From a virus (lineage: Duplodnaviria; Heunggongvirae; Uroviricota; Caudoviricetes), in IMG/VR virus record IMGVR_UViG_2778261459_000007, positions 1 to 24,712 of that record: a stretch of 24,712 nucleotides of DNA. One strand, 5' to 3'. Positions 4,435-21,718 of this stretch are shown here, piece after piece. The position numbers and the translations under genes are program-made. Under the pieces are notes generated by a model. It did no database searches. It was given only the letters and a program-made list of their open reading frames with translations, and was not told the DNA's origin. The stretch's first letter is position 1. Each line of letters begins with the position of its first letter.

Positions 4435-4555
4435 TTCATTGCTCCAGACGAATGATATGATGCAATCATGATGTGATTGCATACCGAAATGGTACTATTG
4501 AGTATTTATCCAGTAGGTTACGATGCCATTCCACCCAACTGGTGAGGCATCAAGG
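4435..4555. promoter_or_regulatory. Divergent promoter/operator region between tailspike and mnt
   Basis: 121-bp gap between divergent start codons. Contains inverted repeat ATGCAATC (4460-4467) / GATTGCAT (4475-4482), the 8-bp palindrome ATCATGAT (4465-4472), and a possible plus-strand promoter TTGCAT (4477-4482) - 17 nt - GAGTAT (4500-4505). Confidence 0.35.
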
Positions 4556-18417: not shown

Positions 18418-18836
18418 TTTCCGAATAGAGTGCTCATCGGTGATGTTTCAATCTGGATTGCGCCGCCGTCCTTACCGACAAGCTCGTTAGTTACCTTGTC
18501 GCCATACTTACGGGGATTCATTCGGGCCAACGCCCATTTGCGTGTATCAACGCGAAGTCTTGCCTTTGCCACTTCAGCAGCATCTGGAATCGCATTGTCA
18601 GCAATTTCGAATATCTCTTCGAAAATAGAATCAGCTCGTGCCTCAGTTGCCTTCGCGTACTTGTCGCGAAAATCCTCATGCTTTGCCAACCAGCGGAAAA
18701 CAGTGGACTTATCCGGCATACCAGGACGCTTACATACTTTCAGCAAACTCTCGCCAGAAGAAAGCAACGAGCAGATATCGTCAGCCACCTCCGGCATATA
18801 ATCAGAGGGGCGACCAGCTTTTGGTTCAGTCGCCAT
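18414..18836 (-). CDS. Terminase small subunit, Sf6 gp1-like
   Basis: 140-aa product MATEPKAGRPSDYMPEVADDICSLLSSGESLLKVCKRPGMPDKSTVFRWL… with an N-terminal HTH-like DNA-binding domain; matches Sf6 gp1 as recalled. The ORF-track start at 18842 (MNM…) is equally possible. Confidence 0.9.
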   Translation of the reverse strand: MATEPKAGRPSDYMPEVADDICSLLSSGESLLKVCKRPGMPDKSTVFRWLAKHEDFRDKYAKATEARADSIFEEIFEIADNAIPDAAEVAKARLRVDTRKWALARMNPRKYGDKVTNELVGKDGGAIQIETSPMSTLFGK

Positions 18837-19040
18837 ATTCATCTCACTTAATTTTTATTTCAGGTTGAGGACTCTTTCGCGCCTTCAATCAGTGACTGCT
18901 TCAGCAATTCGAGTGTGCCAATCGCCTCGCATAAACTGATTTCACCATCGTAATCATGAATGACGCTTTCCATCCGCTCGTATAGCTCTTGAGTAATTGG
19001 GAATTTCTTCTCCTTACCAAAATTGATTACGCGGCTCACA

Positions 19041-19283
19041 TCATGTTCCGGTGGTGAACAGGTCTAACGCTTCCTTCGATTTACGCACCGCTTCGATTGT
19101 GCGGGTCGTGATATCCGAATTAGCGCCGCCTGACTGGAAGTGAATTTTGAATAGCTCAAGCTTCAGTTCGTCAGTGCCAATGAACTGAAATGCTTCCTCT
19201 GCGGCTGCGTTCTGGTTCATGACCAGTTTGTAAATCTCTAACTGGAATTTCTGTTCTTCAGTCATGGGAATAATCTCTGCCAT
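19041..19283 (-). CDS. Small hypothetical protein (80 aa), likely equivalent of the small ORF found between rha and the terminase genes in P22-like phages
   Basis: ORF with ATG 19283 preceded by GGAG at about 9 nt; predicted helical, acidic. Position between rha-like and small terminase. Function unknown. Confidence 0.6.
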   Translation of the reverse strand: MAEIIPMTEEQKFQLEIYKLVMNQNAAAEEAFQFIGTDELKLELFKIHFQSGGANSDITTRTIEAVRKSKEALDLFTTGT

Positions 19284-19635
19284 TGTTGGCTCCGTTTATC
19301 CGTTAAAAGGGATATCAGTTAAGTTATCCCGTGTAGGGTATAAGCCATTGTCGAGACCACTCATTGAATGGCCTCTGCAATAACCGATGTCTTTCCATCA
19401 GTCCGCCACCACAAAGAATCTTTTTTGCCATCAGGCAGGAGGTTCATCTTTCAGTGGCTGCCAGTGTTATTTCCCCACTTACTGGCTTGGGTTGTTTCGC
19501 TGTACTGCCGTAACTGGTGGTGCACAGATTTAGTTAAATCTGTTCTCGCCTGAACTATCTTTTACATACCCGGATTGTGGGGATGTAAATCACGGTTTCA
19601 TTATCAAGCCCACCCGTAGATGGGCTTTGTAATGG

Positions 19636-20154
19636 TCACTTTGGCAGTCCGGGGATCGATATTTGCGCCTGCTGCTCAAGCCTTTCGATTCTTGCTATGA
19701 GTTGCGGTTTTTTGATCCTGCCCCAGCGGTTCAGCAAGCGTCCTGACATACTGGCAACATCCTTTTCCTTCATGAACTCCAGCATTAACTCGTTGTGCTC
19801 TCTTTGGTATGAGTGAGCCATCTCCATCAGCCTGTCACGCATCCAATTAAATGCTTTGATAAACGCCTCTTTGATGGCGGCAGCTTTTTTGCCGGTAAAC
19901 GACATGATGATGTACATCGCGCCGTCTTTGGAAATTTCATATTCAACATACTGATTACCCTTGTGTTCATAGGTAACCCGCGAAAAGTTGCTGGTTAGAA
20001 ATTCATCCGAACAGTCTAGCTTTTCGATTTTCTGAATGATGTGGTGATGCTGCTTGTCGAAGTAAGCTGCTACCTTGCGGGAGGTTGTGATCACGCGATC
20101 ACCAGAAACAACCACCATGTCCCGGAAATCGAGATTAGCCAATTGATGATTCAT
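19636..20154 (-). CDS. rha: Rha-family phage regulatory protein
   Basis: 172-aa ORF. N-terminal VVVSGDRVITTSRKVAAYFDKQHHHIIQKIEKL fits the Phage_pRha domain signature. Located between the lysis cassette and terminase, where P22-like phages carry a rha-type gene. Confidence 0.7.
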   Translation of the reverse strand: MNHQLANLDFRDMVVVSGDRVITTSRKVAAYFDKQHHHIIQKIEKLDCSDEFLTSNFSRVTYEHKGNQYVEYEISKDGAMYIIMSFTGKKAAAIKEAFIKAFNWMRDRLMEMAHSYQREHNELMLEFMKEKDVASMSGRLLNRWGRIKKPQLIARIERLEQQAQISIPGLPK

Positions 20155-20302
20155 AGCGTCTTTACCTTTTAGAAAGATGAGCCTGTTCGCACAGAAAAGC
20201 CGTCCCCGAGATGGTCGCCACCATATACGGCAATTCTCAGGCTCAGCTTTCTGAAAGACTCGGGATTGTTACGCGCTGCGATGCGCGGTTTACTGCAGAT
20301 GT

Positions 20303-20326
20303 AAAAAAGCCCCGCAAATGCGAGGC
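20303..20326 (-). terminator. Intrinsic terminator between Rz and rha
   Basis: Minus-strand RNA GCCUCGC-AUUU-GCGGGGC (7-bp stem with one G-U pair) followed by UUUUUU. Confidence 0.6.
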
Positions 20327-20500
20327 TAAATCCTGGTATTTGTAATGACTGGCTATTATCTCAACGCAGCCCCTTACTGCGCGCCAGATGCTCAATATCA
20401 AGCATCAGCAATGAGATGTTTAATCTGGATTCACTCCAGAAGTGATCACCACCCTGTCTACAGAGCCAGATGTGAAGGATGATGAGTAAAATTATCTCTA

Positions 20501-20938
20501 TCATCGAAGGCATTGCGTCCTGATGTATTCCTGCAGGTAGTTAACCTGCGCGGTTATCTTGTCGATTCCACTTCGGAGACGGTAATAATTGAGTTCAGCA
20601 TCTGCTGTAAGTCTTGGGCTTTCTCCATCGCCCATGCTGCTGGCTCCGGTAGTTGACTTTGCACAGGTGGCGGCGACTTGCAGGCGCTTACGCCCAGCAG
20701 AAACATCAGCACGGAGACTTTCGATAGTCGCGTTAGCATCAGCAAGCTCCTTTGTGTATCTGGCGTCGAGTTCTGCTACATCACGTTGACGCTTCTGCAT
20801 GTCAGCGATGATGGATGTGGCTTTATCGCGCTGTTCTTTATAGGTAATGGCGTTATCACGGTAATGATTAACAGCCCATGACAGACAGACGATGATGCAG
20901 ATAACCAGAGCGGAGATAATCGCGGTGACTCTGCTCAT
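20501..20938 (-). CDS. Rz: i-spanin Rz (inner-membrane spanin subunit)
   Basis: 145-aa ORF. First ~34 residues [34 protein letters not shown] match lambda Rz as recalled; the rest diverges but stays coiled-coil-like. Start overlaps the endolysin stop. Confidence 0.9.
20554..20745 (-). CDS. Rz1: o-spanin Rz1 (outer-membrane lipoprotein), embedded in the +1 frame of Rz
   Basis: 63-aa ORF wholly inside Rz. Signal peptide with lipobox (LLGVSAC) and a Pro-rich mature region ([16 protein letters not shown]), typical of embedded Rz1. Exact start (M1 or M3) uncertain. Confidence 0.8.
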
Positions 20939-21411
20939 ACCTCAATCTCTCTGACCGTTCCGCCAGCCTCTTTGAATTTTGCAATCAGGCTGTCAGCCTT
21001 ATGCTCGAACTGACCATAACCAGCGCCCGGCAGTGAAGCCCAGATATTGCTGCAACGGTCGATAGCCTGACGAATATCACCGCGATCAATCATCGGCAAA
21101 GCGCCACGCTCCTTAATCTGCTGCAATGCCACAGCGTCCTGGCTTTTGGGAGAGAAGTCTTTCAGGCCAAGCTGCTTACGGTAGGCATCCCACCAACGGG
21201 AAAGAAGCTGGTAACGTCCGGCGGCTGTTGATTTGAGTTTTGGGTTTAGCGTGACAAGTTTGCGAGGGTGATCGGAGTAATCAGTGAATAGTTCTCCCCC
21301 TACAATGACGTCATAACCATGATTTCTGGTTTTCTGTCGTCCGTTATCAGTTCCCTCTGACCACGCCAGCATATCGAGGAACGCCTTACGTTGATTATTG
21401 ATTTCCACCAT
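20935..21411 (-). CDS. R: Endolysin R (lytic transglycosylase), lambda-type
   Basis: 158-aa [52 protein letters not shown]… is essentially lambda R as recalled, including the catalytic Glu in the WSEGT context. Confidence 0.95.
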
Positions 21412-21718
21412 CTTCTACTCCGGCTTTTTTAGCAGCGAAGCGTTTGATAAGCGAACCAATCGAGTCAGTACCGATGTAGCCGATGAACACGCTCGTTATA
21501 TAAGCGAGATTGCTACTTAGTCCGGCGAAGTCGAGAAGGTCACGAATGAACCAGGCGATAATGGCGCACATCGTTGCGTCGATTACTGTTTTTGTAAACG
21601 CACCGCCATTATATCTGCCGCGAAGGTACGCCATTGCAAACGCAAGGATTGCCCCGATGCCTTGTTCCTTTGCCGCGAGAATGGCGGCTAACAGGTCATG
21701 TTTTTCTGGCATCTTCAT
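21395..21718 (-). CDS. S: Holin/antiholin S (S107/S105 dual-start), lambda-type class I holin
   Basis: 107-aa [46 protein letters not shown]…, essentially lambda S. Met1-Lys2-Met3 dual start is present: antiholin S107 from 21718, holin S105 from 21712. Confidence 0.95.

Follow-up and report, generated by a model that had tools for sequence, protein, structure and literature searches.

A perfect inverted repeat between rha and ORF80 of an HK620/P22-like phage is probably a dispensable stem-loop of the late mRNA

The inverted repeat ACAGATTTA-gt-TAAATCTGT (plus-strand reading, positions 19524–19543) lies in the non-coding gap between rha and an 80-aa open reading frame (ORF80) in the window, the whole stretch of 24,712 nucleotides of viral DNA that was analysed. 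With somewhat better than an even chance, it is an AU-rich stem-loop in the late-operon mRNA, which is read from the minus strand and has rha, ORF80 and the terminase genes in sense orientation. The analysis shows its structure, the strand on which it is maintained, its variation among relatives and its dispensability; its function is an inference, most likely that of a minor element of structure, stability or processing within the polycistronic late mRNA. The repeat is neither a terminator nor a DNA operator.

The window is of the HK620/P22-like Lederbergvirus type, with the late genes on the minus strand; it comes closest to the records of Escherichia phage APC_JM3.2 and of a prophage in E. 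coli PK8217. The gap is placed inside the late operon, with lysis and packaging genes on either side, all on one strand, and comparison of relatives divides it into four blocks, A to D (Table 1). A promoter and terminator scan revealed no promoter-like sites in 18800–20400, a tRNA/tmRNA scan found none, and no Rfam model matched in the whole window at gathering thresholds. A canonical intrinsic terminator is present at 20327–20308 on the minus strand (AGCCTCGCATTTGCGGGGCT followed by TTTTTT), between Rz and rha and within the late operon; it is presumably read through by the antiterminated late transcript. Small open reading frames in the gap were considered as coding candidates and rejected. 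Those of 28 aa (19445–19359) and 35 aa (19431–19324) are interrupted in other relatives by the insertion point at 19385, and the P22 orf25 frame, which extends into the pid insert in P22, is not conserved in the window, where it reaches a stop after 15 codons compared with 25 in P22.

Table 1 Features of the late operon and of the rha–ORF80 gap in the window
Feature	Position	Strand	Remarks
Holin	21395–21718	minus	
Lysozyme	20935–21411	minus	
Rz	20501–20938	minus	
rha	19636–20154	minus	Pfam Phage_pRha and ORF11CD3 matches
Non-coding gap			352 bp, between rha and the 80-aa ORF
Block D	19586–19635		Starts TAAATC; contains the D hairpin
D hairpin	19606–19627	minus	9-bp GC-rich stem, UACG loop, about −15 kcal/mol; just past the rha stop codon
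Second hairpin	19561–19589	minus	UUUACAU..AUGUAAA, inner CCC/GGG; long allele only
Block C	19529–19585		57-bp indel difference; repeat loop, right arm and most of the second hairpin
Putative first duplicate copy	19535–19585		About 51 bp; starts TAAATC like the second copy at 19586
Block B	19386–19528	minus	Conserved, untranslated at 19386–19523, which is homologous to the body of the 204-nt P22 RNA 'P22G'
Block A	19284–19384	minus	Conserved, untranslated; further sense-strand hairpins
ORF80	19041–19283	minus	80 aa, DUF2560 match; P22 Orf80, HK620 hkbM
59-aa ORF, then Sf6-type small terminase, then large terminase	Beyond ORF80	minus	

The first-pass annotation had described a 20-bp element with perfect 9-bp arms at this position, and the coordinates proved exact: the arms (19524–19532, ACAGATTTA, and 19535–19543, TAAATCTGT) are 100% complementary and are separated by a 2-nt spacer. 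The element lies 92 bp past the rha stop codon and 240 bp ahead of the ORF80 start codon, in good agreement with the values of about 95 bp and 240 bp given earlier for its place in the gap. Read as minus-strand RNA, it is ACAGAUUU-AACU-AAAUCUGU, which forms 8 bp closed by a 4-nt loop (approximately −7 kcal/mol) in both the MFE and the centroid folds. Taken alone, the repeat is at chance level and is not significant. Perfect 9-bp-arm inverted repeats with a loop of at most 10 nt number two in the 24.7-kb window, compared with a mean of 1.25 in first-order Markov shuffles, of which 71 out of 200 held two or more. The sole other one is at 4460–4482 (ATGCAATCA, with a 5-nt loop). A search of the window for further half-sites, proposed with the initial description, gave no other exact copy; copies with one mismatch number eight against 6.2 expected, which is again chance level. 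It is only comparison with relatives that shows a hairpin at the position of the repeat to be a maintained feature.

Several classes of element were compared with the repeat. An intrinsic terminator comprises a GC-rich stem with a U-tract immediately after it on the transcribed strand. A role as terminator or attenuator of rha would suit a stem-loop downstream of a moron-like cassette gene, but this stem is AU-rich, with two G-C pairs among its 8–9, and the letters after it (GCACCACC for the minus strand, TCTCGCC for the plus strand) contain no T/U-run. The terminator scan does not list the repeat, the canonical terminator being the one upstream of rha, and such a role is barely conceivable; the first reading of the element as a poor terminator holds. 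The LexA (SOS) box has the form CTGT-N8-ACAG. The repeat reads ACAG-N12-CTGT instead and, as had been recognised from the order of its arms, is not a LexA box. An RNase III site needs about 20 bp or more of double-stranded RNA, for which a stem of 8–9 bp is too short. Block C was also considered as a MITE or other mobile element and rejected, as it is present in one copy per record in constant context (14 records); inspection of the sequence revealed no terminal inverted repeats at its ends. When the gap was scanned with Rfam in E-value mode, the bare hairpin also matched the mir-723 model, spuriously. The repeat fits the general class of intercistronic mRNA stem-loops: a stem-loop in the sense-strand mRNA should keep its pairing on the transcribed strand, tolerating G-U pairs and avoiding A-C oppositions, and the pairing among relatives, given below, agrees with this.

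Relatives carry the gap in several forms. Block C, which defines the long allele, was found in 14 of 200 related phage records, which represent ten distinct phages, always as a single copy in the same context, and in 33 of the 127 IMG/VR loci that have block B; a search of genome contigs gave one match, on a contig labelled as a Bacillota MAG. In the short allele, block C is replaced by CCAGAATAAATTCCGG (42 loci) or CCAGAAATTAACTCCGG (10 loci), and a hairpin of 6–7 bp is formed in the same place; most other relatives that keep a hairpin carry this allele. The end of another gene occupies the hairpin position in 15 loci. Another 25 loci, of the P22/Sf101 type, have the stop codon of rha directly against block B; here the hairpin is absent, with no compensating hairpin. 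Syntenic relatives with neither the element nor a substitute had been named in the first-pass annotation as the observation that would tell against it; the P22/Sf101-type phages are such relatives, and the hairpin is hence dispensable. Overall, about 30% of block-B loci are devoid of any hairpin here (the P22/Sf101 type and 'form5'), and any function of the hairpin is therefore non-essential.

The variation among the hairpins that are kept indicates the strand on which they pair. A pair table of the six outer stem pairs was made by script for 172 loci, since MAFFT had aligned the long and short hairpins with their right arms out of register. All six pairs are standard in 168 of the 172 loci on the minus strand; read on the plus strand, or as a palindrome in DNA, they are so in 70. 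Four short-allele loci have a non-standard minus-strand pair. Of the 119 loci with the long allele, about 57% have a perfect repeat, 34% carry TCCGT, 5% carry ACAGAC and 4% carry two changes. The TCCGT and ACAGAC changes are transitions that give G-U on the minus-strand RNA and A-C on the plus strand. Between the alleles, pair 1 is A-U (long) or C-G (short), and pair 6 is U-A (long) or either A-U or G-U (short); these two double changes are compensatory only if the long and short hairpins are orthologous, which we infer that they are, and they represent few independent events. The common alleles (four long variants, short1 and short2) have energies of −5.4 to −7.0 kcal/mol on the minus strand, compared with 0 to −3.4 kcal/mol on the plus strand, save for the perfect allele and one single-locus short1 variant. 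Stem-breaking variants are rare, the change in long_d (5 loci) merely shortening the stem beside the loop. The allele set amounts to around ten alleles and approximately 7–8 independent substitution events, in loci that are related and include many near-identical prophages. For the gap as a whole, the fold has z = −6.5 as minus-strand RNA versus z = −3.9 as plus-strand RNA. Pairing that is kept on the minus strand and not on the plus strand points to a chain of stem-loops in the late mRNA, rather than a DNA palindrome, as the thing that is maintained.

The same comparison bears on the proposal that the repeat is a DNA palindrome bound, in the manner of an operator, by a dimeric phage or host protein. 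Perfect 9-bp arms about a 2-bp centre, next to a gene for a Rha-family DNA-binding protein, would be in keeping with such a site, but about 43% of the long-allele loci depart from this symmetry, as do essentially all of the short alleles, whose sequences are asymmetric. Moreover, the window has no second exact site and no promoter in the scanned region around the repeat. Nor is the hairpin tied to rha: it is found with at least 12 different upstream junction sequences, the rha of the window type occurs with the short allele too, and the hairpin is missing in rha-carrying phages of the P22 type. An operator is thus very improbable. Where the initial description had left the choice between a dimeric protein-binding site and an RNA hairpin, the strand-specific pairing supports the hairpin, and the protein site is not supported.

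In the late mRNA, the repeat would form the third of three consecutive hairpins past the rha stop codon, which would run into some 240 nt of conserved untranslated sequence. The hairpins beside it have the same strand preference. The D hairpin has no U-tract, and outer pairs lengthen its stem to 19599–19634. Across 176 copies in 29 variants, most have a minus-strand energy between −12 and −15 kcal/mol, compared with values that are often down to −2.4 to −3.6 kcal/mol on the plus strand; the UACG loop exists on the minus strand only, where the common variants keep G-U pairs. In Sf6-type variants of the second hairpin, the inner pairs are kept through a C-to-T change and an inserted A, and in block A every one of eight variable pairs is standard on the minus strand. 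The D hairpin was also considered as the terminator of a pid-like plus-strand moron and was rejected, as its pairing is kept on the minus strand and pid has another insertion site in P22, where it brings its own terminator (PMC8835761).

Blocks C and D both start with TAAATC, and the long allele looks like the outcome of an old tandem duplication of about 51 bp that included the right arm of the small hairpin and the D hairpin. The alignment of HK620-type block C with block D scores 18, compared with −9.9 ± 6.6 for shuffled sequences, none of which (0/2000) reached 18; the alignment of the window's own blocks C and D is weaker (score 7, p ~0.015). The duplication would have supplied a new right arm and an extra hairpin: the first copy may have kept pairing with the left arm, giving the present repeat, while its remainder drifted and became the second hairpin.

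This history also lends itself to a neutral reading, which we regard as a real but minority possibility: the hairpin could be a by-product of the duplication or of recombination at a mosaic junction, and the strand bias could stem from a few shared transitions. The chance-level occurrence of the repeat, a right arm confined to a 57-bp block of 14 records, the likeness of that block to a duplicate of D and the position of the homology breakpoints (19519–19528) at the left arm would all be expected, and P22-type phages live without any hairpin. However, three alleles of different sequence all form a hairpin on one and the same strand, at −6 to −7 kcal/mol, stem-breaking variants are rare, and the bias seen in the 172 loci recurs independently in the D and block-A hairpins, all of which argues against a neutral by-product.

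The gap is a mosaic and a hot spot of gene exchange. In relatives, homology breaks beside or just within the left arm of the repeat. Blocks A and B themselves are nearly invariant and precede differing packaging modules, namely P22-like, HK97-like (mEp234, HK544, HK97 and HK022) and that of a Stx2a phage. The insertion point at 19385 holds Sf6 gene 66 (Gp49 family) in Sf6 and an insert of about 130 bp in HK544. A further insertion point, at approximately 19298–19324 inside block A, is that of the P22 pid moron, which runs in the opposite direction and brings along a promoter and a terminator of its own (PMC3573128, PMC8835761). Upstream of block D, the accessory genes vary and include rha, KilA-type genes, hkbL and Sf6 gene 65, among others. 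One IMG/VR locus (L051) is an empty site, in which the Rz-terminator region is joined straight to the small hairpin and block B (...CCGGTTTC joined directly to GCACAGAAAAGCC). It contains neither rha nor the D hairpin and yet keeps the small hairpin directly ahead of block B; the small hairpin therefore belongs to the lambdoid backbone. In the window, the cassette (19598–20185) has short microhomology at its edges, GGTTTC on one side and TGTTC on the other, and rha together with the D hairpin behaves as an exchangeable or insertable cassette. The L051 contig, from a related IMG/VR prophage, also carries two adjacent tRNA genes (2031–2183), outside the compared region.

The distribution of blocks A and B is far wider than that of the hairpin. 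In 165 phage records, among them those of P22, HK97, HK022, ST64T and the Stx2a phage, block B has an identity of 90% or more, and no relatives of less than 90% identity were found. The core of block A (19295–19362) matches 2558 of 5426 complete E. coli genomes, including O157:H7 Stx prophages, where it lies (L219) in a gap of about 675 bp between the lysis genes and a DUF1441 small terminase, with no RNA or CDS annotated there. The two blocks occupy the lysis-to-packaging junction in phages of the P22, HK97, HK022 and Stx types. They have no annotated or known function and are a better target for follow-up than the hairpin. When P22 infects, an RNA of 204 nt called 'P22G' is recovered from the sense strand, spanning the 3' end of rha together with block B (PMC13397905). 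It corresponds to approximately 19511–19364 of the window, the block immediately 3' of the hairpin, so that in P22 this stretch of the late mRNA does accumulate as a discrete fragment. As an RNA over the adjacent block, it gives indirect support to the hairpin as an element of the late mRNA. P22 and the window differ in that P22G takes its 5' part from the 3' end of rha, whereas in the window the hairpin lies 5' of the block. The hairpin cannot be essential to P22G, since P22 lacks it.

These observations raise a more specific role for the same hairpin, which overlaps with the preferred explanation: it might be the variable 5' module of a processed late-leader RNA that regulates ORF80 or the terminase in cis, or acts in trans. 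We consider this unlikely. It would account for an RNA over block B in P22, for the near-identity of block B ahead of differing packaging modules and for the strength of the minus-strand fold of the gap. P22G, however, may be a decay fragment and has no known function, a phage that produces it has no hairpin, so that the hairpin is not a required part, and block B offers no diverged relatives in which covariation could be seen. A match to the Rfam model Proteo-phage-1 (RF03044) was noted at 19456–19519 on the minus strand, at 18.6 bits against a gathering threshold of 42 (E = 0.29–0.67). This sub-threshold match has been counted for the leader RNA and also against it: the sequence similarity is striking (AAGCCAGUAAGUG, GAAAUAACACUGGCAGCC), but the stems of the model are not formed, several pairs are non-standard and the match was not recovered in a larger, 30-kb multi-locus search. 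A still more doubtful reading would make it the variable 5' module in a conserved, structured leader RNA, made up of blocks B and A and represented by P22G, that is widespread in the late operons of lambdoid phages. If this were true, the leader would be processed from the late transcript and would control the packaging genes or act in trans.

As a stem-loop of the late mRNA, the hairpin could protect the ends left by processing against RNase E or exonucleases, or could insulate the folding of the conserved leader downstream. At −7 kcal/mol, the stem would hinder exonucleases only weakly, which counts against the preferred reading. The hairpin is best described as a dispensable, allele-specific stem-loop of a mosaic gap, of little import as a single hairpin, and labels such as operator, LexA box or terminator should be kept out of its annotation. 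The gap between rha and ORF80 as a whole is of more general note, as a chain of hairpins that are maintained on the sense strand and flanked by several reused cassette insertion sites.

Boundary or linker sequences are reportedly described at lambdoid mosaic junctions in the HK620 and Sf6 papers. The junction at the repeat resembles the lambdoid boundary sequences ('bsq' features in the Sf6 record) in being a sharp homology breakpoint that is reused by many cassettes; the Sf6 and HK620 records examined do not mark the repeat itself as such a boundary. One of the closest known systems is the P22 pid locus in the orf25–orf80 gap, which is the same gap upstream of Orf80 and is known as an insertion-variable site (Cenens 2013, PMC3573128; Wolput 2022, PMC8835761), with inserts that are absent or differ among related phages. 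The P22 version differs from that of the window in having neither blocks C and D nor the repeat hairpin, and in carrying pid, in the opposite direction, within block A. With respect to structure, the nearest comparison is with mRNA stem-loops between cistrons or at 3' ends that serve stability or processing in polycistronic transcripts of bacteria and phages, such as REP-type stabilisers and the phage lambda tI stem. The repeat is much shorter and weaker than such elements (8 bp, approximately −7 kcal/mol) and is single-copy rather than a member of a dispersed family. It resembles them in being a sense-strand stem-loop that lies between cistrons and has no U-tract, as well as in the arrangement of stem-loops in series whose pairing is kept through G-U changes.
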